Source: Escherichia coli (GTDB lineage: Bacteria > Pseudomonadota > Gammaproteobacteria > Enterobacterales > Enterobacteriaceae). Taken from it: a stretch of DNA of 64,000 bases. This document shows, piece by piece, positions 1,141 through 19,250 of this stretch (position 1 is the stretch's first letter; each line of letters starts with the position of its first letter). Where the stretch lies: NCBI RefSeq assembly GCF_003790525.1, contig NZ_CP033633.1. The stretch is one strand, 5' to 3'. Both the position numbers and the translations under genes were made by a program. The notes beneath the pieces are model-generated. The model was not told where the DNA came from. It worked only from the letters and a program-made list of their open reading frames with translations, and ran no database searches.

Positions 1141-1148
1141 GGAGGCCA

Positions 1149-1167: not shown

Positions 1168-1539
1168 GTTGGCTTTGAATCCTACCCTGTGGGAAGCCCT
1201 ATCCCGTGGCCATCTGCCACTCCTCCACAAGGCTATCTGTTGATGAACGGCCAGTCGTTTTCCTGTTCCCGGTATCCTCAGCTTGCCCGTGCTTATCCTG
1301 GCTGTAAATTGCCCGATCTGCGCGGTGTTTTTATCCGTGGCTGGGATAACGGGAAGGGACTTGATGGTGATCGGAACAGACAACTCCTGAGTTATCAGGC
1401 CGATCAATCAGGCGTCTATCACGAACGTGGCGGATGGCTGAAAGGGCATCATAGTGGTATGCCATACTGGGCACAGGGGAGTACCACAGAAATGCGTCCC
1501 AAAAATATTGCATTCAACTACATTGTTAAAGCCAGCTAG
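1168..1539 (+). other. silent pilV C-terminal cassette
   Basis: In frame with repeat 1149-1167: [37 protein letters not shown]...; convergent with the expressed pilV tail 1544-1876. Confidence 0.7.
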
Positions 1540-1543
1540 GGAC

Positions 1544-2878: not shown

Positions 2879-3582
2879 GTGAATATCTCCGAAGTGCGGA
2901 AAACGGAATCAGGGAGGAGGGTTAGTGCATACAGTGATGCGCAGAGAAACGGGGCGAACGGCAGTGCCTGCTGATGTCTGTGACGGCAGAAGAGGAGGAT
3001 AAACAGAAATGCCCCGGAAGCTGCGGCGGTGATTAGCAGCGGCGTGTGTTGTGGCTGTGTCCACATTGCAATTCCTGCTATCAGGAATACATCACCAAGG
3101 CCGAGTGCTTCTGTTCCTTTTGCCGTTATGAAAAACTGCCGTAGCAGGTATGTCATGCCGAACCAGAGTGATGCGTTGAGGAGGCTGTATGTGAGCTCCT
3201 CCAGGCTGTACCTGAACGCTGCCCCCAGAACAATCAGTGAAAGCGTGAATATCCGGGGAAGCCGACAGACGGCGATGTCCGTCAGCGTCATTACAGTTAA
3301 TAATCCCGTCAGAATGGAAAGGAATAACAGCCCCGTGGCTTCAACACCATATGCGCCGTTGAGGCTGACACTCACTATGGCCAGAAGGCAACACACGTAC
3401 ACCACCGGCCTGGGCGGCCGGGTGTCGTGTACTGCTGACAGGTAGAGAGCGGCGGTGATGTATGCAAGATAAAGAATAACCGCCAGGATGATGATTATTA
3501 TTGTCATGCTCAGTAATGCGCTCACCGTCACCTCGTATTTATTAATATTGTCTGAAATACCGGTTGTGGATTTTTCGGGCAT
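2875..3582 (-). CDS. pilU: prepilin peptidase PilU
   Basis: 235 aa polytopic membrane protein with GLGDVFLIAGIAMW-type motif; position between pilT and pilV. Confidence 0.75.
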   Translation of the reverse strand: MPEKSTTGISDNINKYEVTVSALLSMTIIIIILAVILYLAYITAALYLSAVHDTRPPRPVVYVCCLLAIVSVSLNGAYGVEATGLLFLSILTGLLTVMTLTDIAVCRLPRIFTLSLIVLGAAFRYSLEELTYSLLNASLWFGMTYLLRQFFITAKGTEALGLGDVFLIAGIAMWTQPQHTPLLITAAASGAFLFILLFCRHRHQQALPFAPFLCASLYALTLLPDSVFRTSEIFT

Positions 3583-4018
3583 ATATCATGCGCCGGGCTG
3601 TGTTATTTTTGCTGAAACCGGCGTTATAGCTGCCCAGGCATTCCCAGTTAACGCCGCAGCGTTGAAAATGGCGGGCCAGTATCCAGGCACCGGTATGAAT
3701 ATTCAGGCAGGGCTTTTTAAGCAGTTCATCCTTGTTTTTAATGACGCCCAGTTTTTTCAGTTCAGGAATATGCACTGAATTAATCTGCATTATTCCGTAA
3801 TCCGTACTGATGATTTTTCCGGATTTGTTTTTATTGTGATTTATCGCAGTGGCGACCAGGCCGCTTTCCTGCTGTGCAATGGTTTTCAGAAGCTCAGGGG
3901 CAATCAGGTAACGTTTTCCGGCCTGAATAAAACAGGAATCGAGATGATTATTATTCATCACAGATGCGATTGATGTGTTACTGAATAAAAGCAGGACAGA
4001 GAGATATAACCATTTCAT
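3542..4018 (-). CDS. pilT: lytic transglycosylase PilT (SLT domain)
   Basis: 158 aa; signal peptide MKWLYLSVLLLFSNTSIASV; SLT-type motifs GIMQIN and YNAGF. Confidence 0.75.
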   Translation of the reverse strand: MKWLYLSVLLLFSNTSIASVMNNNHLDSCFIQAGKRYLIAPELLKTIAQQESGLVATAINHNKNKSGKIISTDYGIMQINSVHIPELKKLGVIKNKDELLKKPCLNIHTGAWILARHFQRCGVNWECLGSYNAGFSKNNTARRMIYARKIHNRYFRQY

Positions 4019-4076
4019 TATGATAATCCCGGCAGTGACAGCATCCTCTGGTATTTAAGGATGCTGTCCGGAAACA

Positions 4077-4613
4077 TTAGCTGTTTGTTTCAAGGGTGAT
4101 GTTATTTTTGTCGTTACTACATACTGTTACGGGATCCACAGTAGCCGGGGCGGTATTCATGATTTTGGTAAACATGGATGAACTGCGCAGGCTGTTAATG
4201 AGTTCCACGCAATTTTCTTTCGGTACATTATTGCTGGTAATCGTATAACCATACTTATCTGCCGTTGCCTTAATGGTGACATCACCGCCCCAGGCATTTT
4301 TGGCCTTGTTACCACCGGCGATCATATCGGCCGGCAGGGAACCACTCTGCGTCAGCGTTTTGATATAATCACTGCTGGTATATTGTCCCTGGAACTTGTA
4401 CTGCTTCATTTTGGTTGCAATGGTCTGCAGGTTTTTCAGTTCGCGCTGGTTATCACTGGATGACATGGTACTGGACATCTGACTTATTGCGAGAGCAACC
4501 ACAATACCGATAATAATCAGTGCGCTGGCAATTTCCAGTAAGGTTAAACCTTTATCCTCCTCTTTCTCTTTTTTTAAAGCAAAATAAGAATAAAGACATG
4601 ATCTGAAGTTCAT
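4077..4613 (-). CDS. pilS: type IV prepilin PilS (major thin-pilus subunit)
   Basis: 178 aa; leader followed by KGLTLLEIASALIIIGIVVALAISQ hydrophobic N-terminal helix. Confidence 0.8.
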   Translation of the reverse strand: MNFRSCLYSYFALKKEKEEDKGLTLLEIASALIIIGIVVALAISQMSSTMSSSDNQRELKNLQTIATKMKQYKFQGQYTSSDYIKTLTQSGSLPADMIAGGNKAKNAWGGDVTIKATADKYGYTITSNNVPKENCVELINSLRSSSMFTKIMNTAPATVDPVTVCSNDKNNITLETNS

Positions 4614-4662
4614 ATATCACTCCTGGTTTATGGGATGTTTCAGAAATATTCTGTATGCGGGA

Positions 4663-5763
4663 TTATTGTTTCAGCATGTCGCTGATACTGTAGATGGCAG
4701 ATATCATGTTAAGAATAAAAAAGAAGACAAAACCTCCTGATATACCGGTAATAATTAATCCAATTCGTTTTACCCGTTTTTTTGCTTCCTCCAGCCACTG
4801 ATCGGCATAGAGTGCCATGGTTGCCACTCTGTCCTCCCTTTCGGAGTTCAGGAGCAGTTTATTGATGCATATTCTGGACGGAAAATCGTAACCGGAATTT
4901 CGCATTGCTGTGGCCAGATTCTGACCGGATAATACATGTTTTCGTATTGCCTGAATTCTCTCCTTTAACCATTTATTCTTTTCTGCACCTTTTTCCATTC
5001 GGAGCAGCGCCTGCGAAAGAGGAATATTAATCTGCAGCATGGATGAAATACTGAACAGATAATTCACCCCGTGTAAGGTCTGATACAGTGACCAGGGGGG
5101 AGCCTTGTCCAGCATCCTCCGGCCGGGGCCGGTATACCGGCTGAATGAAAAACGGATCAGAAGCGTCAGGGCGAAAATGGTCCCACAGAGCCAGAATCCG
5201 TACCCGATGAAAAATTCCGACATACCGGCAAGCAATTTCATCTGGAATGACCATTTATCTTCTGAAGCAAACGCACTGACGATGGGGATGATACGGGTAT
5301 GGGCGTTGTACATATTCACCACACAGAGCGAAAGCAGCAGAAGGGGGTAGAGGCAGACGGCAATGAGGCTGGATGTCATTTCCCGCCGGGCTTTAACGGT
5401 TCTGGCCACCTGGAAAAGGGCGTCGGCAATATTTCCGCGCTCTTCCCCGTTTCTGATTAACGTGGCTTCCTCCGGTGGCACCCAGGTTAACAGGGCACCG
5501 GATAACATGCCGCTGGCTTTGATGGAATCGATGCATTCTTTTGCCAGAAAATACATGCCGGATGTGCCTTTCTTTTCACCAAAATCGGTTTCGATCTCGC
5601 AGAGAAATTCGAGTGCACGCAGGGACGGCGTTCCGTCACGTATCATGCCGCCCAGGGCTTCGTAGAACTCCACCCGGTTCAGGGCAAAGGTTTTTCTGGC
5701 CATCCAGATGGTCAGCGCTGTCAGCTCAATGTCGGTGCTGTTGAGTTTTTCCAGAAATTTCAT
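4663..5763 (-). CDS. pilR: PilR, polytopic inner-membrane type IV pilus assembly protein (GspF-like)
   Basis: ORF track gives 4663-5829; start trimmed to ATG at 5761-5763 (MKFLEKL...), which overlaps the pilQ stop as TGATATG; multiple TM segments. Confidence 0.75.
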   Translation of the reverse strand: MKFLEKLNSTDIELTALTIWMARKTFALNRVEFYEALGGMIRDGTPSLRALEFLCEIETDFGEKKGTSGMYFLAKECIDSIKASGMLSGALLTWVPPEEATLIRNGEERGNIADALFQVARTVKARREMTSSLIAVCLYPLLLLSLCVVNMYNAHTRIIPIVSAFASEDKWSFQMKLLAGMSEFFIGYGFWLCGTIFALTLLIRFSFSRYTGPGRRMLDKAPPWSLYQTLHGVNYLFSISSMLQINIPLSQALLRMEKGAEKNKWLKERIQAIRKHVLSGQNLATAMRNSGYDFPSRICINKLLLNSEREDRVATMALYADQWLEEAKKRVKRIGLIITGISGGFVFFFILNMISAIYSISDMLKQ

Positions 5764-5764
5764 A

Positions 5765-7273
5765 TCAGTGCAGCAGCGTATAGCTGTCCTCATCGACGGG
5801 AGATATATAATGGGCCGCCAGCGGATCAACCTGTCCGCTGTTGATTTTTCCCAGCAGATGCTGATTACGGGTCATTCCGCCCAGTTCCCGGTGCCAGTAT
5901 GTTCTGGCCTCAATACGCCCCTTTTCCCGGTACAACTGGAAAAAACGGGCATCCGGGGAGATGACTTCTGCGATCACTGTTCGTCCTGTCACGCCACGCC
6001 AGCAGTGCGGGCAGCCTTCATGATTTCGCAGATATACCTGGTCCGGGTTGCAGACGCTTTCCACCAGGCGCCGTTCATTATCCGTGCGCTCGGTAGCCAC
6101 CTCATGCCAGGGGCGACGGCAGTGCGGACATATCAGCTGAACCAGACGCTGGCTCAGCAGGCCAATGAACAGTTGCGGGTCGGCAATCATCCTGGCCTGT
6201 ACCCCCTCCATCTCAAGACGTTCGAGGATGTTAATCGGGTCGTTCGCATGGATGGTGGTCAGCATCAGATGCCCGGTCATGGCGGCTTTTATTGCCGTAA
6301 TGGCGGAATCGTGGTCACGGATTTCGCCGTTCAGGATCCCGTCAGGGTCAAGACGTAGTGCTGATTTAATGGAGTCCACCCAGCCCTGTGCGGAATCCAT
6401 GACGGCAGTCTGAATGGCACCGGGTATACGGCCCTCTGGCGGGGATTCAATGGTGAACAGCCTGCGACGGGGCAGAAGAATACCGCCGGTATTGTTGAAG
6501 CCGTACTGTTCAAGGTACGCCGCAGAGGCGGTTCTCAGCGTGGTGGATTTTCCTGAACCTGTTGGTCCTGAGAGCGTGATAATACCTTCAGGGCGCTGCA
6601 GAATACGGCGCAGGGTGCGCTCCTGCTCAGGGTGGTAGCCCAGCATGCTGAAGGTCGGGATTTGCAGACTGTCATCCTTGATCAGACGGAGCACAGCATA
6701 GAGGCCGCCCACGCAGGGATAGTGGGAGTAGCGTGCACCAAACAGACCGGCCAGTTTCAGGTACTGCTCTGAAAGACGCGCATCCTGAGGCACCCCGGGA
6801 TCAAACTGTGTGCCCTTGATGACGTCGGTCATGCCGGAATAGGTGGCCCCCAGTAATTCGAGGCCTTCTTCTTTCCGGAGGATATCGAGCACTTCCAGTT
6901 CGCCGTGAACCCGGGCTTCCACATAGGTGAAGTCCGTGTTGTCTCGTCCCGGGGTCATATGAAGGTCTGAGGCACCAAGAGAGGCAGAATGGCGGATATA
7001 GCCGAGCATTTTCTGCTGTACCGGGTTAATGACGCTTTCATCACCGGCGGTTGTGGTGTCCTGTCTGAGGCGGGCTATCACATCCAGGGTGGTGAATTCA
7101 AAGTCTCCCACACGCCCCTGATGACGTGCGCGCAGGCGGGTCAGATATTCCTGGACGGCACGCAGATGTTTTTTTCCCTCCACGACCCTGACCCGCAGAT
7201 GACCGGTTTTATCTGTGTCGATAGCCACATAATCCAGAATGTCATCCGGTGGCAGGTCTGCAGGATCCAACAT
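5765..7273 (-). CDS. pilQ: PilQ, type IV pilus assembly ATPase (GspE/PilB family)
   Basis: 502 aa; Walker A LSGPTGSGKSTTLR; C-terminal CPHC...CPHC zinc-finger-like tetracysteine. Confidence 0.85.
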   Translation of the reverse strand: MLDPADLPPDDILDYVAIDTDKTGHLRVRVVEGKKHLRAVQEYLTRLRARHQGRVGDFEFTTLDVIARLRQDTTTAGDESVINPVQQKMLGYIRHSASLGASDLHMTPGRDNTDFTYVEARVHGELEVLDILRKEEGLELLGATYSGMTDVIKGTQFDPGVPQDARLSEQYLKLAGLFGARYSHYPCVGGLYAVLRLIKDDSLQIPTFSMLGYHPEQERTLRRILQRPEGIITLSGPTGSGKSTTLRTASAAYLEQYGFNNTGGILLPRRRLFTIESPPEGRIPGAIQTAVMDSAQGWVDSIKSALRLDPDGILNGEIRDHDSAITAIKAAMTGHLMLTTIHANDPINILERLEMEGVQARMIADPQLFIGLLSQRLVQLICPHCRRPWHEVATERTDNERRLVESVCNPDQVYLRNHEGCPHCWRGVTGRTVIAEVISPDARFFQLYREKGRIEARTYWHRELGGMTRNQHLLGKINSGQVDPLAAHYISPVDEDSYTLLH

Positions 7274-7369
7274 AAGGCCTCCTTACGGGCAGCGGCGCCC
7301 GGAAAATATGTTTTCTGTTATTAAGCGAGGGAAATAATCAGTTCTTCTGCGGAGAGAATCTGGACATTT

Positions 7370-8044
7370 TCAGCACAGGCTTAACAGTGTAAAAATGATT
7401 ACGCCTCCAAAAGCGAATAACAGGGGAATGTTTTTCTCCGGCTGTGTTGATCTCAGCGTTAATACCGGTGTGGCGAGAGCGTAAAAAATAATACCTGCGG
7501 TATAAATAAAATAAGGTGTGATGCCGGACAGATTACATACACTGGCGAATATCATAAGCATGACGGCAACTACCGATAAAATAATGGAAGTATTCTTCCA
7601 TTCACCAGATGGTGTAAGTGAAATGATATCGCCATCCTGTTTATAGTTCGTGTTCAGCTTCAGGAAATGACGGATATCTTTCAGCGTGTTCAGTTTCTGC
7701 TGGATCTCTTCCACAAGTTCCTGTCTGTCGGTTTTTTCACGGAGCAGCTGGAATTTTGTCTCCCTCAGTACAGATATAATACGGTCCACCTGGCCGGGGG
7801 AGGGATAGTAATGATGTTCGAGCATCCACCGGATATCGGCGATTAACCGGTCAGTTACCGGTGTATTACCGTTGTTAATGAGAGGTGTTTCGTGCATCCA
7901 CTGAAATATGCGGTAGATATGTCGCTTAACAAAAATAAAATCATCGGTGGTTTTATTCTCCAGCATGAGATATATCCCGTCGAGTGTTAATAATAAAACG
8001 TCCCGGGTGTGAGGTGATTTGTGATGTATTGTACGGAATATCAT
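7370..8044 (-). CDS. hypothetical protein with C-terminal transmembrane helices (unassigned, inside pil operon)
   Basis: 224 aa; soluble N-terminal ~150 aa then 2-3 hydrophobic helices; AT-rich relative to flanking pil genes; no recognisable motif. Confidence 0.55.
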   Translation of the reverse strand: MIFRTIHHKSPHTRDVLLLTLDGIYLMLENKTTDDFIFVKRHIYRIFQWMHETPLINNGNTPVTDRLIADIRWMLEHHYYPSPGQVDRIISVLRETKFQLLREKTDRQELVEEIQQKLNTLKDIRHFLKLNTNYKQDGDIISLTPSGEWKNTSIILSVVAVMLMIFASVCNLSGITPYFIYTAGIIFYALATPVLTLRSTQPEKNIPLLFAFGGVIIFTLLSLC

Positions 8045-8175
8045 TTCTGCACTGTAATCGTTTACGCAGGTGATATATCACACCAGAGTAAATACAGCGG
8101 AATGAAGCTGTAGAGTGACCAGAAAAGCCCGACGGGATCTTTTGCCCACAGGCATAAGAATGTCAGTCCGGTGCA

Positions 8176-8616
8176 TCATGCGCCGGCAAGTGCCGCGCAT
8201 AATTCAGCGCCTCCGGAATTGCCGCTCTTCATCATATAACAGAGCGCGATCAGCAGTGGGATAATGAAGACGAGCGGCAGGACAAAGGATTCGGCTGCGG
8301 ATATCCATTCCCGGTAACGCCAGCGGTCGTTTAATCTGTCGGCATCATATTTCAGACAGTTGCTCAGGAACGCCAGATCGTTCATGAGGGGGGCGTCCTG
8401 GCCATACTGCGCCGCGAGGCGCATTCTGGCACCCCACAACCGGGCACTCAGGGCACGGAGTTGTGCCGGGGTGACCTGTTTTCCCCGACAAAGTTGTACC
8501 TGTAATTGTGTTGCCTCGTGGACAATATCTGTGTGGTTCACCCCATATTCTGCAGCGGCTGTTTCCAGGTCACGGATGATCAGGCTGAGCCAGGATATCA
8601 GTTCACTGATGTTCAT
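8176..8616 (-). CDS. hypothetical protein with C-terminal transmembrane helix (unassigned, inside pil operon)
   Basis: 146 aa; soluble N-terminal part then FVLPLVFIIPLLIALCYMM helix; co-directional, between pilP and the 224-aa ORF. Confidence 0.55.
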   Translation of the reverse strand: MNISELISWLSLIIRDLETAAAEYGVNHTDIVHEATQLQVQLCRGKQVTPAQLRALSARLWGARMRLAAQYGQDAPLMNDLAFLSNCLKYDADRLNDRWRYREWISAAESFVLPLVFIIPLLIALCYMMKSGNSGGAELCAALAGA

Positions 8617-8664
8617 TGTCGTTCATCCTTTTGTACGGACAGCCGCCTGTACTGGCGGCCGGTT

Positions 8665-9117
8665 TCATGGTCGCAGGGTTTTTCTGATGCCGGACTGCTC
8701 CAGTACCACACTGTCCGGTGTGATTTTCTCCACGAGATAAGGGGTTCCGGGGATGTTCTGGCCCGTCTTCACATCGGTGATGTGTCCACCCGAAAGTTCT
8801 ATCCGGGCTCTCAGCTGAGGCTGTACACCAAATATTTCTGTCAGACGGGGGGATGTCGCCGTCGACGGGGCAGTCGGGATGGCGGACGTGCTTTCCTGCG
8901 GACGACCGGGCTCTGCGGGAATACCCTGCTCCAGCATGCGCAGTTCATGACGGATTTTCTCTCTCGCCAGCATGGCTTCATACAGGGCTGTTTCGTCCTG
9001 TATCCGCTCAATCTGCAGTTGCCGGGGACTCTGTTCCTCTGCGTTTCCGGTTGTGGCCATTGCCGTTGCCGGTAACAGCAGCGCTGAAACCAGAAGGGCT
9101 TTTGTTTTAGCGTGCAT
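8665..9117 (-). CDS. pilP: PilP, periplasmic pilus assembly protein
   Basis: 150 aa; signal peptide MHAKTKALLVSALLLPATAMA; overlaps pilO stop; operon position. Confidence 0.65.
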   Translation of the reverse strand: MHAKTKALLVSALLLPATAMATTGNAEEQSPRQLQIERIQDETALYEAMLAREKIRHELRMLEQGIPAEPGRPQESTSAIPTAPSTATSPRLTEIFGVQPQLRARIELSGGHITDVKTGQNIPGTPYLVEKITPDSVVLEQSGIRKTLRP

Positions 9118-10402
9118 AATATTTACCTGTAAATTGATAGTGGAAACGACCGTTCTCCAGTTGTCGTGTGACAGAGATAAAACGGACAGAAGGCGCCTTC
9201 AGACGTTCAACCAGCTGGTATGCCGGGAGTAGCGTCTGTATCTGAAGGTCATACTCTTTCCACGGAGGCTGGATAATATTTCCGTTTTCATCGGTGACGC
9301 TGTTACTGACCTCCTGCCAGTCCAGCGTCAGTGGCATTGACTGAGCAAGCGTGGTCAGTTGTTCTTGCAGGACAGAGCTTTCCGGCAGAGCATCAACGTC
9401 GACGGGATGTTCAGGCAGGCGGAAGCTGACTGGCAGGCCAATGCCGCCGGTCTTTCCTTCCGGCATCACAATAAAGGGGCGGGTACCCGTCATATCACTG
9501 ATGCGCCGGATGAAGTCAGTCACTGTCGCGCCAGCTGTATTAGTGTACGAGGCGCGAAGATTGCCGCTGCCGCCGTCAGTTGAACATTCAGCCAGCGAAT
9601 AACGCCATCCGGAGGCAGACAGTGGCAGTGACGTCCATATGTCAGCACATCCCTGGATAAAGGCGTCGGTTTCGGGGAGTCCGGGCCAGGGGGGACTGAT
9701 TTGTTCCTCTGTGACCTGTCGGGCAGCTGCTGCCTGCGCGGCTTGTTCAGTCTTCCACCGTTCATAATACTGCCAGCCGTACCATGCAGCGCCGAGAAGG
9801 GCGATGATCAGCGAGACAGTGATGAACTGCGCTCCCCGGGATACCGGATTCAGGCGCGCGGCAGCCGGATGTTTACCAGAGCCGGTCAGGGTGGACAGCG
9901 GCAGGGCCTGATTCTGATCGCCTGCTGAAAATGCCACCGGTTCATAGCGTGTCCAGCCCTGCTCCGGTTCGGTGTTGATGGAAAGAAAGGTATCCCGGGC
10001 TTCACGGACCTCTTCTCCGCTTCCCACCAGGTCACTGACGAGAACACCGTCGACAGCGGAAACAAAGCTGTAGCGCGGTGTTTCTCCGGGTAACGTCAGT
10101 TCCGTGATGGCATAGCCGCCATGTTCAAGCAGTGGCAGGATCAGCAGGGCGAGGGAGAAGCACTGACGGGGTTTTCCGGGCAGTATGCGGCGACTGACAG
10201 TGGCTACCATGGTGTGGGTATCGGCATCTTCATTACTGAGATACTGACAGGCCAGGAAAAGGTCGGCTTTCTGTGCCCGGGCAAAGTCGCGGGCATGCCG
10301 GTACTGTGAGGGCAGTGTTTTCCATTCCAGCCCGGCCAGAAACACATTGCGCCCTGCCGGCAGCGGAAACACCTGCCGCTCTGTCGGTGAAATATCCGTC
10401 AC
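9107..10402 (-). CDS. pilO: PilO, pilus assembly protein
   Basis: 431 aa; internal TM segment FITVSLIIALLGAAWYGW; operon position between pilN and pilP. Confidence 0.65.
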   Translation of the reverse strand: MTDISPTERQVFPLPAGRNVFLAGLEWKTLPSQYRHARDFARAQKADLFLACQYLSNEDADTHTMVATVSRRILPGKPRQCFSLALLILPLLEHGGYAITELTLPGETPRYSFVSAVDGVLVSDLVGSGEEVREARDTFLSINTEPEQGWTRYEPVAFSAGDQNQALPLSTLTGSGKHPAAARLNPVSRGAQFITVSLIIALLGAAWYGWQYYERWKTEQAAQAAAARQVTEEQISPPWPGLPETDAFIQGCADIWTSLPLSASGWRYSLAECSTDGGSGNLRASYTNTAGATVTDFIRRISDMTGTRPFIVMPEGKTGGIGLPVSFRLPEHPVDVDALPESSVLQEQLTTLAQSMPLTLDWQEVSNSVTDENGNIIQPPWKEYDLQIQTLLPAYQLVERLKAPSVRFISVTRQLENGRFHYQFTGKYYAR

Positions 10403-10422: not shown

Positions 10423-12042
10423 TCAGATGATATTGGGCGTGATCAGCACCACGAGAATGGTGTCGTCGTTTTCACTGTTGATCCCACCGCCAAGACCGAA
10501 GAATCCCGGCGTGCCTACACCCTGTTTTCCGCTGCGACGTCCTGACTGCTGGAAGCCACTGATAATGACCGTCTGCCCGGATTTCAGATCCACGGTCTGA
10601 TTGATGGTTTTCAGATCCACATTCGGCAGCTGGGCTTTACTTCCACCGCTCTCATAATTCTCAATAACCGGTTTGTCGGAGAGACTCATGGAATAGAGCA
10701 ACTGCAGTGTCTGTGAGTCCGGGAGAATGAACGGCAGAAGGGTCATGTTAAAACCGGTGGTGATGGTGGCCGCATTCAGGGAGGTGGATGAGCCGACATT
10801 GGCAGTGGTATCCGTCGTCACACTCTCGATGTAACTCTGCTGATTGGCGATCTGCATTGGCACCGGCGTCAGGTTTTTGGTGACGGCAGAGTGCTGGGTC
10901 ACCACACTGACAACCCCCTGGGAAGACAATGCTTTCAGGAAGGCTTTTGAACCGGTGAGTTTACCGTCCACAATGGAAACACCACCTGTGATGGCATCAC
11001 TGGCTGCACTGGTGAATGTGCTGCCGAGACTCAGTCCCAGCGTTCTGTCGCTGAAGACTGCGTTCCAGTCGATACCGGCCTGCTCATTGCGGGTTTTCCG
11101 GATACTCAGAATTTCCACATTCAGCACCACCTGACGTTTCATCTCTTCATTGCGTTTTTCAATGAATGCCCGGACCGTTTCCAGAACCTGTGGATTATCT
11201 GTGACGGTTATAAAGCCCGTGGACATGAACATGCGTCCGATACCCGGGGTCAGCATTGATGTGACCGCATTTTTCACATCCTGATACAGCGCAGACTTCA
11301 TATCCACGGTGGTGGTCTGGGTATTGCTGGCATCACCGGAAATGGCATCTGATGCACTGCCTCCTGATGAGCCGTTTGAGGACATGGTGCCGCTGACCAC
11401 AGTGGCGTTATAGGTCACCTGACTGTCCATATAGGTGATGGGGAAGGTCTGTGTCTCGAGATAATAGAAGATGATATGCGAGCCGTCATAGCGCCAGGAT
11501 ATACCGAGACGGGAGGAGACCGCATTCAGCAGGGTCGTCAGGCCGGAGGCATTCAGTTCAGACAGTGCTGCGGTATTTCCCGGCAGACGGGATGATGGCG
11601 TGTCAGATGCGCCAATGGCGGCAAGGGGAACCATGCCGCTTGCATCCGGTGGGGGTAACGCGCCCTGGATTTGTTGTGTGCTGCCGGTTGTGGATGTATT
11701 CAGGTATGTCAGTACATCAGGTGTGATCCGTACAGGAATATGGCAGCTTTCCGTGATCCGCTGAACCACCTGCTGAAGGGTGATGCTCTGACGGGTATGA
11801 ATGACAATGGGACAACCGGGAACGGTTTTGCCGGTGTTTTTATCCATGACCGGACGGGGATTGATCCATTGTCGAGAGGATTCCTTAACAACCGGCGTCC
11901 GGGTTCGCAGATCAGACATCATTTCCCGTGCCCGTTGTTGTTCCGCAACGGCTTCCTTTCTTGTGCTCTCAAGCTGTCTGTAACTGGCACAGCCCTGTAA
12001 CAGAGCGGCGGCAATCATAATGGCAAGAATTTTTTTATTCAT
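10423..12042 (-). CDS. pilN: PilN, secretin lipoprotein (outer-membrane channel)
   Basis: 539 aa; lipoprotein signal MNKKILAIMIAAALLQGCAS; secretin-like C-terminal domain ending VLITPNII. Confidence 0.8.
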   Translation of the reverse strand: MNKKILAIMIAAALLQGCASYRQLESTRKEAVAEQQRAREMMSDLRTRTPVVKESSRQWINPRPVMDKNTGKTVPGCPIVIHTRQSITLQQVVQRITESCHIPVRITPDVLTYLNTSTTGSTQQIQGALPPPDASGMVPLAAIGASDTPSSRLPGNTAALSELNASGLTTLLNAVSSRLGISWRYDGSHIIFYYLETQTFPITYMDSQVTYNATVVSGTMSSNGSSGGSASDAISGDASNTQTTTVDMKSALYQDVKNAVTSMLTPGIGRMFMSTGFITVTDNPQVLETVRAFIEKRNEEMKRQVVLNVEILSIRKTRNEQAGIDWNAVFSDRTLGLSLGSTFTSAASDAITGGVSIVDGKLTGSKAFLKALSSQGVVSVVTQHSAVTKNLTPVPMQIANQQSYIESVTTDTTANVGSSTSLNAATITTGFNMTLLPFILPDSQTLQLLYSMSLSDKPVIENYESGGSKAQLPNVDLKTINQTVDLKSGQTVIISGFQQSGRRSGKQGVGTPGFFGLGGGINSENDDTILVVLITPNII

Positions 12043-12072
12043 GGGAGATCCGTGAGTTATTCAGATTCGTGA

Positions 12073-12510
12073 CTAATTCATCCAGAGGATGACGTGATCG
12101 GGGATCACCGACGGAAGTGTGACGGAAAGCGCTCTGCCGGCGGTGTCCAGCAGCCGGCCGTTTTCCACCCTGCCGAGGAGGGCAGAGTCATGACTCTGTT
12201 CCCTGAGGGCGGCCATCAGGCCCGGGGTTTCTGTGGCCCAGACAAAAACACGTTGCTGGCTGATGATATGACTGACGGTATCCGTCCCGGGAAGCCCGAG
12301 CTGAGCGGATGTCAGCCGCCCTCCGGCTGTCCGTCGTTCCGGATTCTGATGCAGGTAATCATTGATGGCGTTCATATAACGAATGAACGTTGCTGCCTGT
12401 TGTGTGTTTTCTGCGGCCTGATGACGGTGTTCGCTGCGGGAGAGCTGACTGGTGAACCAGAAATTGCCGGTGGTCGTGATGACCATGATGAACACGATGA
12501 ACCAGCCCAT
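12073..12510 (-). CDS. pilM: PilM, inner-membrane pilus assembly protein
   Basis: 145 aa; N-terminal TM helix MGWFIVFIMVITTTG; operon position. Confidence 0.65.
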   Translation of the reverse strand: MGWFIVFIMVITTTGNFWFTSQLSRSEHRHQAAENTQQAATFIRYMNAINDYLHQNPERRTAGGRLTSAQLGLPGTDTVSHIISQQRVFVWATETPGLMAALREQSHDSALLGRVENGRLLDTAGRALSVTLPSVIPDHVILWMN

Positions 12511-12514
12511 AAGG

Positions 12515-13585
12515 TTATTCCTGTGGACGATCTGTCACCCGCAGCAGACATTGTGCTGTGCTGGTCCGGGCATACAGCGGTTTTTCCACCGGGGTGTAGA
12601 GTGCAAATAGCTGTTCCAGCGCCTGGCGGAAACTGCCGGTGAAAACCAGAGGAGCATCGATGCTGTAGTTGACAGGTGTTTCCCAGCGCAGTGTCCATGT
12701 GCCGTGCGGGCATTTTTCGGATGATGTCCAGCGGGCCAGTCCGTCTTTCAGGGTGGTCCCCTTTTCCATTTTCCACTGCCGTGGCGGTATGACCTTCTGC
12801 GGTGGTGTCACTACCGGTTTCGTGGCCACCGGGGCTGGCGTGGTTGTTCTGCTCTCTGGTGTTCCGGATGTCCCGGTGGTGGTCTGAGCCCGGGATACGC
12901 TGACGGCAGGTGGTACCTGTGCCTGGTCTGCCGCTGTTCCGGTTGTGCTCCTGAACGGATTACGTGGTGTGTCCGCTGTTTTCTGTGAACCCTGCGGTGT
13001 CGTGACGTCGACCGGCGGTGTTGCAGAGGTCGTGACAGTCAGTATTTTCCTGTTCCAGTCCATATGTCCGTAAAGCTGCTGGCCGGCCAGCAGCGCATTC
13101 AGTGCCCGGTGCCACTGGTCATTAACGGACCAGGAAGGGAGGCGTTTGTTCAGTGCCGGTGTGGCGGCATTCTGCTGGCGGAACTGCCAGCCGGTTGGCA
13201 GCAGCTGGCGTATCCAGTCACTGACGGTGCGCTGACGTGCTTCACGTAAATAAACGACGGATGAGGGACCGGGCTTACCGGTCATAACCAGTGCAGACAG
13301 CGGTGTGGCCTGAAGAAGCGGGCGGGGAGGCAGTGCGGTACTCTGGCTGCTGACAGTGGTTGAGGGTGTCGCCGTTGTTGTCGGACGGGGCGGTGTCACA
13401 GGGCGGGTCACCGGTGGCGGAAGCAGACGTTTTTGCGTATGGGTGATAATGGCAGCACTTTCGCGAATTTGTCCGTCGACGAACACCAGAGCCGGAGGCG
13501 TGGTATCCGGAACAGGCGTGGCATTAAATGCCGTACAGCCGCTGAGTAATGACGGCAGAAGGAGTGTCAGTGATTTCTTTTGCAT
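12515..13585 (-). CDS. pilL: PilL, pilus assembly lipoprotein
   Basis: 356 aa; lipobox LLSGCTAF; Pro/Thr-rich linker; first large gene of the pil operon. Confidence 0.7.
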   Translation of the reverse strand: MQKKSLTLLLPSLLSGCTAFNATPVPDTTPPALVFVDGQIRESAAIITHTQKRLLPPPVTRPVTPPRPTTTATPSTTVSSQSTALPPRPLLQATPLSALVMTGKPGPSSVVYLREARQRTVSDWIRQLLPTGWQFRQQNAATPALNKRLPSWSVNDQWHRALNALLAGQQLYGHMDWNRKILTVTTSATPPVDVTTPQGSQKTADTPRNPFRSTTGTAADQAQVPPAVSVSRAQTTTGTSGTPESRTTTPAPVATKPVVTPPQKVIPPRQWKMEKGTTLKDGLARWTSSEKCPHGTWTLRWETPVNYSIDAPLVFTGSFRQALEQLFALYTPVEKPLYARTSTAQCLLRVTDRPQE

Positions 13586-13706
13586 AGAATATAATCCGGT
13601 ATATTACGGGTTACGGTATAAGACAGGTGGCGGGTAACTGGCCTTCAGATGAATATCATTTCATCGGGTTATTGATGATGAACCTTAAAAATCACAGAGG
13701 TGATGC

Positions 13707-14102
13707 ATGATAAAGAAGATGTGGCGTTATTTACGGCAAATTGATAAGTATGAATTGCTGCAGCAGGTGATTTCAGTACATGAAGTGGAACTGCTCAGGA
13801 AAATGATGACAGATTCATTATTAGGGTGCTCAGTAGGATATGTGTTTTCGAAAATACTGAAGATATTCTTTCTGCGTTTTATTCAGTCTGAGGGGGGATG
13901 GGATATTATTACTTACTTTTTGTGGATGCTGGGAATACTTATTGTCATGGCCGCGCTGTTTATCTGGATGTGCGCCGCTGTATGCTATGAGCTTCGGATG
14001 TATAAAATAAAAACAGGAAGGGAGAACGATATATTATTCTGGGTGTGGATTCTTCTTTTTGATGTCGCGGTTGTATTTTCGCTGGGTAATGTTATCTGGT
14101 GA
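13707..14102 (+). CDS. hypothetical small membrane protein (AT-rich)
   Basis: 131 aa; at least two hydrophobic helices; plus strand, opposite to surrounding genes; abuts ORF 14103-14534. Confidence 0.4.
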   Translation: MIKKMWRYLRQIDKYELLQQVISVHEVELLRKMMTDSLLGCSVGYVFSKILKIFFLRFIQSEGGWDIITYFLWMLGILIVMAALFIWMCAAVCYELRMYKIKTGRENDILFWVWILLFDVAVVFSLGNVIW

Positions 14103-14534
14103 TTATGGGTTCAGTGACATATGGAAAAAGATAAGTGCGAACATTGATACTGAAGAATAATATATCCAGGAATAGAAAAACATGAATTTCGGAGATGGTT
14201 TCTTCTGTCTCCTGTTTTTCAGGGGAGTCTGTGGGTCAAATGTTATCAGCGTCATTAAAGGATACCCTTTCATAAGAATAAAAATATAGACGCATAAATG
14301 AGCGTAAAGAGGTAACCTGTCCTGCCAGAACAGAATCATCATGATGACGGCAAGATGAAATGTCGTTACATTGATATAATAAAACCAGCTGTATTTACGC
14401 AGATACTGTTGGATATTCACGCTGTCAGCATGCGGTTCTGGTGAACAATTTATGCAAAAACAGAAGAAAGAAATGATGATGAACACGGTCAGAGTGACCG
14501 GTAATACAGTCACAAGCAGAAAGAGTATGGACAT
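14103..14534 (-). CDS. hypothetical polytopic membrane protein (AT-rich)
   Basis: 143 aa; 3-4 hydrophobic helices; convergent with 13707-14102. Confidence 0.4.
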   Translation of the reverse strand: MSILFLLVTVLPVTLTVFIIISFFCFCINCSPEPHADSVNIQQYLRKYSWFYYINVTTFHLAVIMMILFWQDRLPLYAHLCVYIFILMKGYPLMTLITFDPQTPLKNRRQKKPSPKFMFFYSWIYYSSVSMFALIFFHMSLNP

Positions 14535-14606
14535 AAAAATATCTCCGTCAGGATAGTGTGATTATTCCTTTATGGTTCCATAACCCGGCGTAGCTCCGTC
14601 GACTGG

Positions 14607-14924
14607 TTATAATTTTATCCGGGACCTGGCTTTAAGGGGTAATGCCACCTCTTTCCATTCACTACAGCTTCCGGGAATACGTTCTGTGCGTCGTATTATT
14701 CGTGTGTTCTGGCATACAATAATCAGGGCATTGTCTGCCGTCTGAAATGGCATTATAGCGATGTTTATATCTTCTGTTGCAGGAATATAACTGACTTTCT
14801 TTTCACATGTATTGGTGTATATGACAACTCTGAATTTTTCTGCGGACATTTTCAATCCTCTTTTAAGCCAGAATATCCCGTGAGGGCATTCTTTGTGAAA
14901 AAGATGCCGGAAAAATTCCGGCAC
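14607..14924 (-). CDS. hypothetical small protein (start may be the internal ATG at 14849)
   Basis: ORF track 105 aa; internal MSAEKFRVVIYTNTCEKK... is a plausible start; directly downstream of the SPFH gene. Confidence 0.4.
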   Translation of the reverse strand: MPEFFRHLFHKECPHGIFWLKRGLKMSAEKFRVVIYTNTCEKKVSYIPATEDINIAIMPFQTADNALIIVCQNTRIIRRTERIPGSCSEWKEVALPLKARSRIKL

Positions 14925-14929
14925 GGGGA

Positions 14930-16624
14930 TTAAACCTGTTGTGGTTCTGAGTTATCCGGAGTGGTTACCGGTTCGCTGACATCCGGAACCTTTTCCGGGG
15001 CAGGCATGACCAGTGGACGTGTCAGGGCTGTAAGTCCTTCACCGGATAAACCCACCTCTTTCAGCAGGGAGTCGATGAGCGGAGCCTGTGTACGGTAAGC
15101 CAGAGCGGCGGTTACTGCCTGTTCAGCGAGATTTCCGCCACTTATGTCGGTTGTTGCTGTTTTACCGCGGGTAACACCGCCATTCAGACCATCCACCTGA
15201 ATGATTTTAATACCGTCAATGGATTTCATTGGTTCTGTGGACTTCTCTATGACGGCAGGTAATGCATCCAGCAGGGCAAGACGGAAGCGGAGGCTGGTCT
15301 GCTCATCCGAAAGCACGTTAATGGCATCGTTCAGTGCGCGCTGTGCTTCTGCTTCTGCCAGACCTTTCTGACGGGTGGCCTCCGCCAGTTCAATAATTGC
15401 TGCTGCCTGGAGTTCGGCTGCTTCTTTTTCAGCCTGTGCGCGAACCGTCAGTTCAACCGCTTTCGTTTCAGCTTCCTGAGCAGCAGCAATCAGGGCAACC
15501 TGTTTGGTACGGCCGGCCTCTGCAGTCTGGCGGGTGGTTTCCACATCCTGCTGGGCCTGTACGGCCTCAGCCAGTGCTTTACTTGCCCGGGCTTCTGCCT
15601 GTGACTGCTCTTCCGATTTTGCCGCCACGGCAATGGCTCTGGCCTGGCTGGCGATTTCGGTTGCCTGCTGTTGTTCAATTTCCCGTATGGCCACTTCCCG
15701 TTCGGCTTCGACCTGGCGGGTACGCACTATCTGCTGTCGTTCGATTTCGGCTTCCTCTATCTTACGTTCAGCCAGAATTCGCGCGGATTCTGCTTCACGA
15801 CGTCGTTCAGCTTCAATAGCAGCAATACTGGCACTCTGCTCTGCCGTACGGGTTTTTACCCGTTGTTGTTGCTCCAGAGTCATGAAGGCTTCCTGCTGTT
15901 CAATCTCCAGACGTCGGGAGAGTGCATCCCGGTTTTTTTCCCTGATGGCCACTTCAACATCCTGCTCAACTTCGTTGCGTTCGCGGCGACGACGTTCTGT
16001 TTCCTGGGTCAGAAGGGTCAGGCCTTCAGCATCAAAGGCATTGTCAGGATTAAAATGTACCCGTGCAGTCTGGTTGAAACTTGTCAGCGACACACTTTCA
16101 AGCTCCAGACCGTTTTTGGATAAGTCTTCCGCAACGGTGTTCTGCACACCCTGAACAAAGTTCTCGCGGGCATCCTGTAAATCCTGCATGCTCATTCTGG
16201 CCGCCGTGGCCCGTAGGGCATCAACAAATTTATCCTCGACCAGACTACGCAGATCTTCAGGTGTGAGCGTGCGTTGTCCCAGCGTCTGGGCTGCAGTGGA
16301 TATTCCTTCGGCTGATGGTTTTACCCGAAGAAAAAAGGCAACGGCAACATCAACACGCATGCGGTCGCGGGTTATGAGACTTTCAGCCGCTGCACGACTG
16401 ACTTCCAGCTTCAGGGTGTTCATGTTGACGGGAATTGTTTCGTGAAAAATGGGCATAACAATTGCACCGCCACTCATTACCACTTTTTGGCCTCCCAGAC
16501 CTGTGCGGACAAAGGCCTGCTCTGCCGATGCCCGGCGGTACAGGCGGGCAAATATCAGCCCGATAACGAACAGGGTGAGGACCAGCGCTATAACGGTAAA
16601 CAACCATCCCGGAAGATTAAACAT
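14930..16624 (-). CDS. SPFH/band-7 (flotillin-like, YqiK-like) membrane protein
   Basis: 564 aa; N-terminal TM helix, SPFH-like region, then long Glu/Ala/Arg/Gln-rich coiled-coil; size and layout match E. coli YqiK. Confidence 0.75.
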   Translation of the reverse strand: MFNLPGWLFTVIALVLTLFVIGLIFARLYRRASAEQAFVRTGLGGQKVVMSGGAIVMPIFHETIPVNMNTLKLEVSRAAAESLITRDRMRVDVAVAFFLRVKPSAEGISTAAQTLGQRTLTPEDLRSLVEDKFVDALRATAARMSMQDLQDARENFVQGVQNTVAEDLSKNGLELESVSLTSFNQTARVHFNPDNAFDAEGLTLLTQETERRRRERNEVEQDVEVAIREKNRDALSRRLEIEQQEAFMTLEQQQRVKTRTAEQSASIAAIEAERRREAESARILAERKIEEAEIERQQIVRTRQVEAEREVAIREIEQQQATEIASQARAIAVAAKSEEQSQAEARASKALAEAVQAQQDVETTRQTAEAGRTKQVALIAAAQEAETKAVELTVRAQAEKEAAELQAAAIIELAEATRQKGLAEAEAQRALNDAINVLSDEQTSLRFRLALLDALPAVIEKSTEPMKSIDGIKIIQVDGLNGGVTRGKTATTDISGGNLAEQAVTAALAYRTQAPLIDSLLKEVGLSGEGLTALTRPLVMPAPEKVPDVSEPVTTPDNSEPQQV

Positions 16625-16650
16625 AGTGAGAACCTCTGTATATGTCGGGA

Positions 16651-17271
16651 TTAAAGAACATCCGGCCAGGGATTCAGTTCGCCCAGCCAGCGGGAACCGG
16701 AAAGACGGCAGACAATAATCACTTTGTCTCCTCGTCTGAATTCTTTCCCGGCCTCCGGCTCCAGCAACAGGTAATGAACCTGCCCGAAGCGGTCTGTGAA
16801 GCGACCTTCACAGGGGGAACCCGCCACTGCGTGATAACCGGTGATGGTGGCCATACAGCCGATGAATGCCTCCTCGGTGAGCGCCGTTGTTTCATCACGG
16901 GGTAACCAGGGGGCAATCAGTCTGCCGGTGCGGTGTACGAGAGGACATGTCAGCAGCAGGCAAAGTGGTGTAAGGAGAATGTTCGGGGCAGGAGCCTGCA
17001 GCAGATGAATAATAAGACCCTGCAGGAGAATGCCGGATATACCAAAAAAACCTGCCAGCATACAGAGGACGATCAGCAGGGGGATCCGTCCGATGTTCAG
17101 CCAGTCCAGCGCCTCTCCTGTCAGCCCCTCCGGTAAATCAGGTGTATCCATAGCTGAAGAGAGGGAGTGTCCGCAGAGCAGGGCGATAAGTTCAGCGATA
17201 CCAGTAAGCAGAACAAAAGTCAGGGCTGCCAGATAGGGTGCGTTATACGCGGTAAGTAACGCCAGTGTCAT
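16651..17271 (-). CDS. NfeD-like (YqiJ-like) membrane protein, partner of the SPFH protein
   Basis: 206 aa; N-terminal hydrophobic helices and C-terminal soluble domain; immediately upstream of the SPFH gene as in yqiJ-yqiK. Confidence 0.7.
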   Translation of the reverse strand: MTLALLTAYNAPYLAALTFVLLTGIAELIALLCGHSLSSAMDTPDLPEGLTGEALDWLNIGRIPLLIVLCMLAGFFGISGILLQGLIIHLLQAPAPNILLTPLCLLLTCPLVHRTGRLIAPWLPRDETTALTEEAFIGCMATITGYHAVAGSPCEGRFTDRFGQVHYLLLEPEAGKEFRRGDKVIIVCRLSGSRWLGELNPWPDVL

Positions 17272-17537
17272 TTTTCCTCCTGTGGCAGGTCAGTCAAACA
17301 ACATTATGGCGTGAAGCTTCCGCTTCTTTAATTGTCAGAAGAAGCATATCGTCAGTCATCAGAAGACAAGGGGATGTCTGCAGGAGGGGATGATAACAAC
17401 AGAAGCCTCACGCCGGAATGCGCTTTATGACAACCGGAGAGGACGGATAATCAAAAATGGGACATCCACATCAGCAAACCGCGATTTGCGAAAAAAAGTC
17501 AGCGGAGAGTGGCTGCCGTTGTGGCTGTCCCGGTATT

Positions 17538-18203
17538 TCAGTGTAACAGGTGATTGCTGTGATCTATGCCCCATTCGGCTTTCGGTAAACCTGAATGCCC
17601 CACATGAAGAATGCGTGACAGCATGTTTCTGCCGCTGCCGTTCAGGCTGCATTCGCGTCCGTGCGCGAGTATAAAACCTTCATCCCGGAATATATCTTCC
17701 ACTTCTGAAGATTCGAGGGATGCCGGATGAATTAATGAAAATGCCACCGGTCTGAGCATTCTGCCCGTGGTGGAAAAGGTGTCTCTGGTACTGTTCAGCT
17801 GCAGGATATGACGTTTACCTGTTTGCGCACGGGAAAGTGTCTCACTCAGCAGCTGGTCGTTCCATGCGCACGTGCCAATCTGCCATCCCAGACTTCTGCA
17901 CGCGGAAAGAGCCGAGCGGAAGCGGTACAGGTCGTATAATGCTGCGTTATTGCCACTTTCCAGCAGTGATTTCAACGTATTTGCTACCGGTATGTCCGTA
18001 TTGGTGGCCAGCAGTTTTCGCAGAGTCGTAAACTCTTCTGCCATTCCTCTGAACTCGCGCATCTGACGGGCAGTGTCAAGCCAGTTCAGCAGGTAACGCC
18101 GGCGACGCCGTTCGTTGTTTATGTTGTCCGGGGCGGTGGAGAGTGCTTCGAGCATATTCTCCAGTAACAGAATGACAGGGTTTTCCTGGGATAGAATGGT
18201 CAT
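17538..18203 (-). CDS. hypothetical protein, positionally TraC-like (IncI transfer regulator)
   Basis: 221 aa; no motif recognised; sits between the NusG-like gene and the pil region. Confidence 0.35.
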   Translation of the reverse strand: MTILSQENPVILLLENMLEALSTAPDNINNERRRRRYLLNWLDTARQMREFRGMAEEFTTLRKLLATNTDIPVANTLKSLLESGNNAALYDLYRFRSALSACRSLGWQIGTCAWNDQLLSETLSRAQTGKRHILQLNSTRDTFSTTGRMLRPVAFSLIHPASLESSEVEDIFRDEGFILAHGRECSLNGSGRNMLSRILHVGHSGLPKAEWGIDHSNHLLH

Positions 18204-18343
18204 AAAGGCGTCCTGAAAAAATGCCCGACAGCCGCTCTCCGTACACCCTCAGGTGTCACCGGTGCCGGGCATTGTGGAAACAGAAGGGAAAAAAATCCCG
18301 GCCATAAAGGCCGGGAAAAGTCGTCAAATTAAGACAGCAATTT

Positions 18344-18985
18344 TCATGTCAACGCTCCGTCATCAGATACCAGGTGCAGGAGCAGGGCGATCCTCGACTC
18401 CGGCAGAGGCTGTGCATCAAGCCGGAGGAGGTACTGGTAACGCGCTTTTGTCAGCCAGAGGGTGGAGGCAGCATCCAGCTCCTCCCTGGCTGCCGGATTG
18501 AGCGCAGGATCCGGGTACACTTTCATTAAAGACTGAACGATATCCTCCCTGACGGTTTTGATTTCACCGGCCATTTTCACGAAGCCCAGAAAGGCACTGT
18601 GACGGCGCAGGTGAGTGAAAGCGTGGCGTTCGGGGTCTGCTTTCAGAAAGAAGTAACCGGGAAACACGGCGTGTATATGACGACGGTAACCACAGACTTT
18701 ATCCGTGCGGCGGACCTTTTTCAGTATCAGGGGTGTCCAGGGAAGGACGTGTTGTTCGGAAAGCCAGGAAAAGAGATGTTCGCGGTTTTTGCCGGCAGGG
18801 ATGTACTGTGCCAGATACCAGTTGCGTTGATGTAATTCACTGATATTCAAAATCCGGAACGCTCCGCGAAAATCGATCCCCGCAGGGGGGCTTCGATGTT
18901 GTTGTGAACGGCGAATACATAAAGCATGTGTCGGAAACAGCGGCTGACCCACGTTCAGCCCGGCCTGCAGTTCTGACAGGCACAT
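18344..18985 (-). CDS. NusG/RfaH-family (NGN domain) transcription antitermination-like protein, TraB-like
   Basis: NWYLAQYIPAGKNREHLFSWLSEQHVLPWTPLILKKV...VFPGYFFLKADPE parallels RfaH SWYLLYCKRGQ...LFPNYLFVEFDPE; ORF track start at 19051 is probably too far upstream. Confidence 0.5.
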   Translation of the reverse strand: MCLSELQAGLNVGQPLFPTHALCIRRSQQHRSPPAGIDFRGAFRILNISELHQRNWYLAQYIPAGKNREHLFSWLSEQHVLPWTPLILKKVRRTDKVCGYRRHIHAVFPGYFFLKADPERHAFTHLRRHSAFLGFVKMAGEIKTVREDIVQSLMKVYPDPALNPAAREELDAASTLWLTKARYQYLLRLDAQPLPESRIALLLHLVSDDGALT

Positions 18986-19124
18986 GCACTGTGCACTCTT
19001 GTTAGCCTTGTGGACGGTTTCGAGGCGGGCGAAAACCGACAACTCCTGCAAACAGGATTAATGGCTGGCAAATATATTACATAAGGATGTATCTGTGGCA
19101 ATAGTGAATATAAGTAGTTGAATA

Positions 19125-19250
19125 GATCGTTATATTTGATAAATAAGCGTATTATGCTGATTTGTGTGCAGTGTCTGGAGGATTAGATCGCTTAAAAATT
19201 TTAGGCGATCTCTTCTACTAAAAATGATGAAAAAAACAGCATAAAAGATC
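19125..19250. promoter_or_regulatory. AT-rich intergenic region with four GATC sites in similar context (candidate Dam-sensitive control region)
   Basis: GATC at 19125, 19186, 19207 and 19247, three of them as AGATCG(C)TT; lies between the NusG-like gene and the rep leader. Confidence 0.3.

Follow-up and report, generated by a model that had tools for sequence, protein, structure and literature searches.

Why should a conjugative plasmid of Escherichia coli carry, between a transfer regulator and its thin-pilus genes, a flotillin operon that nearly every host already has on its chromosome? This question is raised by a 64,000-nucleotide (nt) stretch of contig NZ_CP033633.1, hereafter the window, in which two neighbouring open reading frames (ORFs) on the minus strand encode a 206-amino acid (aa) NfeD-like protein (16651-17271) and a 564-aa SPFH/flotillin protein (14930-16624). 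An earlier interpretation made from the letters alone (the sequence-only reading) had described them as a membrane-scaffold pair transcribed with the thin-pilus cluster, with a suggested role in assembly of the pilus or the transfer apparatus or in envelope stress. What the plasmid carries is a copy of the enterobacterial yqiJ-yqiK operon, and this copy is optional and dispensable: an accessory, not a component of the transfer machine.

A plasmid-borne yqiJ-yqiK operon

The best matches to the window were E. coli IncK2/Z plasmids (I-complex, mating-pair formation type MPF_I) at 100% identity, e.g. pE16-3, and by these matches the window is an IncK2/Z conjugative plasmid. Both ORFs were recovered exactly where the sequence-only reading had placed them, and its description of an NfeD-like protein followed by a flotillin is borne out by Pfam and by comparison with the E. 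coli chromosome: plasmid YqiK is 81% identical to chromosomal YqiK with 0 gaps over 541 aa, and plasmid YqiJ is 55% identical to chromosomal YqiJ over its full length. The plasmid and chromosomal operons have the same two-gene order, the same 26-nt gap, with the NfeD-like gene directly adjoining the SPFH gene on the same strand, and the same Pfam architecture.

The 206-aa protein is predicted to be an inner-membrane protein of the short NfeD-like type; it has three long hydrophobic helices and carries, at its C-terminus, an OB-fold beta-barrel resembling the soluble domains of NfeD proteins. It matched YqiJ_N (PF21001, E 3.4e-15) and YqiJ_OB (PF07290, E 2e-14); the Pfam scan of this protein returned YqiJ families only, with neither a canonical NfeD domain (PF01957) nor a ClpP-like protease domain. 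Plasmid YqiJ is NfeD-like by fold and context, and is neither a canonical nor a long NfeD. The 564-aa protein has the layout of a flotillin (SPFH2): a hydrophobic segment at residues 1-30 (Kyte-Doolittle) consistent with an N-terminal membrane anchor, a Band_7/SPFH domain (PF01145, E 1.3e-18, residues 35-183), a coiled coil rich in A/E/Q/R, a Flot C-domain (PF15975, E 1.3e-38, residues 402-526) and a divergent proline-rich and acidic tail. The long charged coiled coil had also been proposed from the letters alone and was found at residues 195-430, which are 36% charged and 64% A/E/Q/R.

The predicted topology, with an N-terminal anchor and a cytoplasmic SPFH domain and coiled coil, is common to plasmid and chromosomal YqiK, whereas the two sequences diverge at the anchor (60% identity) and the C-terminal tail (32%). 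The operons also differ in guanine-cytosine (GC) content (54% for the plasmid pair versus 48% for the chromosomal one) and in setting, the plasmid pair lying between traC and pilI and the chromosomal pair in the glgS/ribB neighbourhood. Across sampled genomes, plasmid YqiJ was 56-65% identical to every chromosomal YqiJ, while chromosomal YqiJ proteins were 67-86% identical among themselves. Since plasmid YqiJ stands apart from every sampled chromosomal homologue, the best of which reached only 63-65% identity, a recent chromosomal donor was rejected.

Similar pairs of an SPFH protein and an NfeD-family partner are known elsewhere. In Bacillus subtilis (FloT, also YuaG, with the NfeD2 protein YuaF) and Staphylococcus aureus (FloA with NfeD), a flotillin with a Flot C-domain is likewise paired with a short NfeD-like OB-fold membrane protein. 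YqiK differs from these in its Gram-negative host and in having no known experimental link to kinases, FtsH or secretion, and it is not a FloT equivalog: plasmid YqiK scored 80.5 bits against the NCBIfam FloT model NF058507 (cutoff 700), i.e. it is a relative of FloT without being its orthologue. E. coli QmcA-YbbJ (PDB 8z5g) also pairs an SPFH protein with a partner of the NfeD family from the same operon and forms a cytoplasm-facing cage, but QmcA is stomatin-like (SPFH1), lacks a Flot domain and is encoded in the opposite gene order. A sequence search of the PDB found no solved relative of plasmid YqiJ or YqiK.

A constrained resident of the transfer-regulator block

On the minus strand the gene order is traB, traC, yqiJ, yqiK, pilI, a low-GC 1-kb segment, pilL, pilM, pilN and onward, with repA on the opposite strand. 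Immediately upstream of the pair is traC (17538-18203, so labelled by RefSeq), a positive transfer regulator whose product is 37-38% identical to R64 TraC. It is preceded by traB (18344-18985 from the RefSeq start; the mechanical ORF reaches 19051), which encodes a NusG/RfaH-like transcription elongation factor that is 65% identical to R64 TraB and matches the NCBIfam RfaH and LoaP models below cutoff. Downstream, pilI (14607-14849 in RefSeq, 30% identity to R64 PilI) and then pilL, pilM and pilN follow on the same strand, so the earlier observation that the pair lies directly upstream of the pil genes in the same orientation stands.

The layout is shared with the IncI1 plasmid R64, whose traABCD-pilI-V region has the same backbone of a NusG-like traB, a terminator hairpin, traC, a variable slot, pilI, pilJ/K and pilL-V. 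In R64 the slot is occupied by traD, which is unrelated to yqiJ or yqiK, while in the window it holds the pair; pESBL has neither (PMC4288162). R64 TraD was considered as a degenerate homologue of YqiJ or YqiK and rejected (BLASTP E 1.9-4), as it proved to be a paralogue of PilK. The two R64 genes (traD at 19350-19916 and pilK at 17693-18283 of the R64 record, L006) encode proteins that are 27% identical over 180 aa (E ~1e-13). Nothing in the R64 tra/pil gene set is homologous to the pair, which by that comparison is not a member of the thin-pilus and transfer set of the I-complex.

Selection was estimated by comparing the window with one diverged metagenomic contig (L008; ENA ERZ27268043 k141_149405, 1-10166), which carries a diverged pair in the same traB-traC-yqiJ-yqiK-pilI order. 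The ratio of nonsynonymous to synonymous divergence (dN/dS) was 0.048 for yqiK (dS 0.75) and 0.12 for yqiJ (dS 0.58), against 0.22 for traB (dS 0.50) and 0.20 for traC (dS 0.82). By these estimates the pair has diverged together with traBC, is more constrained than traBC and is under strong purifying selection while plasmid-borne. Hundreds of plasmids carry annotated copies that are identical or nearly so; because of this and the dN/dS of 0.05-0.12, both ORFs are judged to be real genes and not chance ORFs.

The diverged contig is a mosaic. From traB to pilI it is K/Z-like (70-93% aa identity), while from pilK to pilN it is R64-like (65-95%), with the junction just after pilI. Furthermore, DNA homology of the window to other lineages stops at or inside the 3' end of pilI, with breakpoints at about 14626-14638. 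The mosaic and the breakpoints together place the pair in a traBC-yqiJK-pilI block, of which pilI is the last gene, and not in the pilL-V structural cluster. On this comparative evidence, the pair has long resided in the traB-traC-yqiJ-yqiK-pilI block of those I-complex plasmids that belong to the IncK/Z/B/O branch.

Distribution and repeated loss

Plasmid counts were taken from PLSDB with records grouped by their TraC homologue, a TraC less than 60% identical being counted as IncI1 type. Any TraC homologue was present in 2072 records, of which 1533 had an IncI1-type TraC and about 539 a K/Z-type TraC. The pair was found intact only in the K/Z-type group, in 256-268 plasmids (~50% of that group and ~13% of the whole I-complex), under both IncK2/Z and IncIγ/K1 replicon calls and in E. 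coli, Shigella and Salmonella hosts. No flotillin match was found in the ~1533 IncI1-type plasmids, R64 included. Absence from most related plasmids, which the sequence-only reading had named as counting against its proposal, largely applies to the I-complex as a whole and applies by half to the closest group, in which about one plasmid in two keeps the pair. Among complete E. coli genomes, the plasmid pair was present in 227 of 5426 and chromosomal yqiK in 5423 of 5426.

Relatives without an intact pair include two kinds of deletion scar. In the first (type A, 75 records), the equivalents of window positions 17495-15413 and 15231-14904 are gone and a 181-bp internal fragment of yqiK is left; the deletion ends at the exact 3' edge of the hairpin that follows yqiK (see below). 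In the second (type B, 96 records), codon ~17 of yqiJ is joined to the 3' end of yqiK at a 10-bp microhomology, CAGCCCTGAC, which occurs in the window in yqiJ codons ~15-18 (17219-17228, minus strand; the left repeat) and near the 3' end of yqiK (15021-15030, minus strand; the right repeat). The product is an in-frame 47-aa YqiJ'-'YqiK fusion ORF, annotated as WP_072105535.1 in loci L003 and L014 and in plasmid pMS7163B (positions 2121-2264 of locus L019). Two different scars prove an ancestral presence of the pair in the K/Z branch, followed by independent loss, at least twice. The pil genes were intact in all four scar loci inspected, and the 171 records matching either scar are mostly typed conjugative.

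Two further disrupted loci were noted. In NZ_CP029742.1 an IS2 insertion lies within the yqiJ-yqiK-pilI stretch, another route of inactivation seen in one plasmid. In the virulence plasmid of a Shiga toxin-producing E. coli (STEC) O121:H19 strain (L015, NZ_CP031911.1, 1871-4205), traB-traC-yqiJ is kept, followed by a break and by espP ~0.9 kb downstream; what this non-conjugative (mobilizable) plasmid retains is a remnant of the traB-traC-yqiJ-yqiK-pilI block.

The scar plasmid pMS7163B is an IncB/O/K/Z plasmid that has been dissected by TraDIS (sequencing of transposon insertion sites). It conjugates on surfaces, requires traBC for conjugation (log2 fold change -5.3) and mates poorly in liquid, at ~2e-6 (PMC10286972). 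Identical TraC and pilK-like proteins are encoded by p866, a plasmid with the intact pair; the deletion in pMS7163B is therefore recent, and p866 and pMS7163B form a near-isogenic natural pair. The surface mating of pMS7163B and the mostly conjugative typing of the 171 scar plasmids indicate that yqiJ-yqiK is not required for conjugation, at least on surfaces, and the repeated deletions together with the absence from IncI1 plasmids mark it as dispensable.

One rival reading is a neutral passenger, captured once from a chromosome, now decaying and without function for the plasmid. Consistent with this, the pair has been lost at least twice by simple deletions, one of them at a 10-bp microhomology, it is interrupted by IS2 in one record and truncated in STEC plasmids, and the host already has a chromosomal copy. 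Against it, dN/dS values of 0.05 and 0.12 at a dS of ~0.6-0.75 were accumulated while the pair was plasmid-borne and are tighter than those of traB or traC, the reading frames are intact in ~260 records, and the ribosome-binding site and downstream hairpin are conserved. A functionless passenger is therefore considered quite unlikely.

The losses also bear on the proposal that the pair is a dedicated scaffold for assembly of the thin type IVb pilus and/or the type IV secretion system (T4SS) as part of the pil operon. The position directly upstream of pilI-pilV in the same orientation, a linkage conserved in the diverged lineage, favours this proposal, as does the recovery of Agrobacterium T4SS proteins in detergent-resistant membranes (PMC8656257); the poor liquid mating of the pair-less pMS7163B (PMC10286972) is a weak hint in the same direction, the pilus mattering mainly in liquid. 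Yet the pair is missing from all ~1533 IncI1-type plasmids including R64, in which thin-pilus biogenesis was defined, and at least 171 close relatives have deleted it, with the pil genes kept in the four loci inspected. In the mosaic contig the pair moves with traBC-pilI, while pilK-N come from another lineage. Furthermore, both localisation and function of the Agrobacterium T4SS are independent of SPFH proteins (PMC8656257). The conserved hairpin between yqiK and pilI, described next, also argues against membership of the pil operon, and a dedicated assembly scaffold is accordingly rated a poor prospect. A needed role in pilus or transfer-apparatus assembly is thus unlikely, and both the distribution and pMS7163B contradict an essential one.

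Transcription anatomy

Transcription signals were examined by consensus scans and folding of the sequence. The 266-nt spacer between traC and yqiJ (17272-17537, minus strand) contained no minus-strand terminator-like site in the scan and no usable promoter, the sole minus-strand promoter-like match having its -10 hexamer overlapping the yqiJ ATG. A strong Shine-Dalgarno sequence, AGGAGG, precedes yqiJ, and the ribosome-binding site is conserved. In the diverged contig the whole spacer is missing and traC overlaps yqiJ.

On the other side of the pair, a terminator-like or attenuator-type stem-loop (14904-14924, minus strand) begins 5 nt past the yqiK stop codon and consists of a 9-bp stem followed by CUUUUUC (-13.4 kcal/mol, z -3.4). 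A hairpin is present at the same place in the diverged contig with its pairing kept, the stem GUGCCGGAA/UUCCGGCAU having become GUGCCGGAG/CUCCGGCAC through a compensatory A-U to G-C change and a G·U to G-C change. The claim that the pair is transcribed with the thin-pilus cluster therefore has to be revised: the closer tie is to traC, from which no spacer terminator separates the pair and with which yqiJ overlaps in the diverged contig, and a conserved hairpin splits yqiK from pilI.

Between traB and traC lies a GC-rich hairpin followed by U7 (18296-18316, minus strand; -18.1 kcal/mol, z -4.5) that resembles an intrinsic terminator. Three diverged I-complex lineages have conserved it, the other two copies being at 771-789 (plus strand) of the diverged contig and 20840-20857 (minus strand) of R64. 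This layout suggests a terminator that the NusG paralogue TraB may itself overcome, and TraB possibly promotes read-through in a traB-traC-yqiJ-yqiK unit. The RfaH ops element (GGCGGTAGnnTG) was considered as a recruitment site for TraB and rejected; three matches with one mismatch were found, as chance predicts, none of them near the region. An Rfam scan of window positions 12000-20000 returned nothing in the traC-yqiJ spacer or after yqiK, and only a repZ pseudoknot and a CopA-like RNA elsewhere. Taken together, the signals are most readily read as a traB|traC-yqiJ-yqiK unit that would be ended or attenuated before pilI.

In the TraDIS data for pMS7163B, insertions in the scar ORF (locus 00160), pilI, pilK and pilO are enriched after mating (log2 fold change +2.4 to +3.2). 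The enrichment in the scar ORF, pilI and pilK (+2.6 to +3.2) was considered as evidence for a single transcription unit and was not used; the authors of that study filter for insertion bias that existed beforehand and report no repressors as validated, and the enriched scar ORF and pil genes are not among their named candidates (PMC10286972, S1 Table A).

Proposed function

The literature on SPFH-NfeD pairs indicates roles as membrane scaffolds or cages and in membrane-protein homeostasis (PMC10434171, PMC2636767, PMC8656257). The reading we prefer, with a probability of roughly 0.45, is that the plasmid pair forms an accessory scaffold in the inner membrane that is produced together with the transfer regulon and gives a conditional benefit, and does not serve an essential assembly function. 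According to this proposal, yqiJK would be transcribed with the traBC regulatory unit, as its distal part, and hence made when the transfer regulon is switched on, with the hairpin after yqiK ending or attenuating the transcript before pilI. By analogy with other SPFH-NfeD pairs, YqiK would be anchored through its N-terminal helix, face the cytoplasm and oligomerise with YqiJ to build a scaffold or cage in the inner membrane. The plasmid copy would supplement a chromosomal copy that is very weakly expressed: a fusion of chromosomal YqiK to green fluorescent protein is undetectable at native expression, and E. coli YqiK expressed from a plasmid is reported as punctate (PMC10434171). The scaffold may then buffer the inner membrane, or its protein quality control, during building of a secretin-containing type IVb pilus and a Dot/Icm-like T4SS, the outcome being a conditional fitness or transfer benefit.

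Several points weigh against an accessory scaffold of this kind. An E. coli ΔyqiK mutant and a quadruple SPFH mutant are almost without phenotype (PMC10434171), and Agrobacterium SPFH mutants keep T4SS function (PMC8656257). The presence of chromosomal yqiK in nearly every E. coli host (5423/5426) leaves the need for a second copy unexplained, and the frequent recent loss of the pair argues that any benefit is small or niche-specific. The proposed function is extrapolated from other SPFH-NfeD pairs, whose own roles are unclear, and co-transcription with traC is read solely from consensus scans and gene spacing.

A more specific form of the proposal, which we regard as improbable, would make the pair a TraB/TraC-switched module for membrane protection or assembly assistance that improves thin-pilus-dependent mating in liquid or lowers the envelope cost of the secretin and T4SS. 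If this were true, loss of the pair would contribute to the very poor liquid mating of scar plasmids such as pMS7163B, for which many other causes are possible, and the module would be the first clear plasmid-selected function for a Gram-negative flotillin.

The weak expression of the chromosomal copy would also fit cargo that manipulates the host, extra YqiJK dosage changing host behaviour, e.g. through lower motility or biofilm and altered envelope properties, and aiding persistence of the plasmid independently of conjugation. Nesse et al. put forward the plasmid-borne yqiK as a candidate to account for the drop in biofilm that followed transfer of blaCMY-2 plasmids, citing the enhanced swimming of a yqiK mutant (PMC7824781), and overexpression of YqiK alters cell morphology (unpublished observation quoted in PMC2636767). 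However, in the same study sugE and unknown genes are listed as possible causes of the biofilm change on an equal footing, and the site of the pair in the transfer-regulator block, where the scan detected no promoter belonging to the pair, suggests that its expression is tied to transfer genes that are usually repressed; host manipulation is on balance unlikely. Far less probable still is a membrane-based defence or exclusion function against phage or incoming plasmids. Its sole basis is that a membrane-associated accessory gene pair is carried on a plasmid, with nothing direct in its favour, while no PADLOC model matches the pair or five neighbouring proteins, excA-type exclusion is already encoded elsewhere in the I-complex backbone (R64 annotation), and the architecture is that of the housekeeping yqiJK operon.

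Neighbouring features of the window

The low-GC (0.38-0.42) 1-kb segment between pilI and pilL (13586-14606) appears to be a variable slot of the pil operon. It showed no homology to the pilK-like gene of p866 and pMS7163B or to R64 pilJ or pilK. Two small hydrophobic ORFs lie within it, at 14103-14534 (minus strand), which is absent from the RefSeq annotation, and at 13707-14102 (plus strand); a Pfam scan of the two gave no significant family. Upstream of repA (19523-19673), Rfam identified the repZ regulatory pseudoknot (177 bits) together with a CopA-like antisense RNA that overlaps it, the standard replication control of the I-complex. Beside the replicon, at 21505-22040, ORFs and matching RefSeq annotation indicate a Phd/YefM-RelE/ParE type II toxin-antitoxin pair.

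Significance for the plasmid family

The pair itself was already known from annotation and from mentions in the literature, RefSeq labelling it as an 'OB-fold-containing protein' (or DUF1449) and a 'flotillin family protein'. The searched literature contained no functional study of plasmid yqiJK or of a flotillin in conjugative plasmids, in keeping with the sequence-only reading, which had called its suggested role uncharacterised. Only two passing mentions were found: yqiJ/yqiK on the map of a Shigella sonnei IncB/O/K/Z plasmid (PMC8549364), and the biofilm candidate noted above (PMC7824781). What is added here is the evolutionary status of the pair: it is old and constrained, it is linked to traBC, and it has been lost repeatedly.

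In practical terms, the message for plasmid biology is a negative one: the pair lies outside the core conjugation and pilus machinery and is best regarded as optional backbone cargo. Gram-negative flotillins are still without a clear function, and the natural near-isogenic variants, p866-like with the pair intact and pMS7163B-like with the pair deleted, offer material for testing. The strong purifying selection on a copy that sits among the transfer regulators of a widespread family of resistance plasmids shows that, under some condition, the pair pays for itself.

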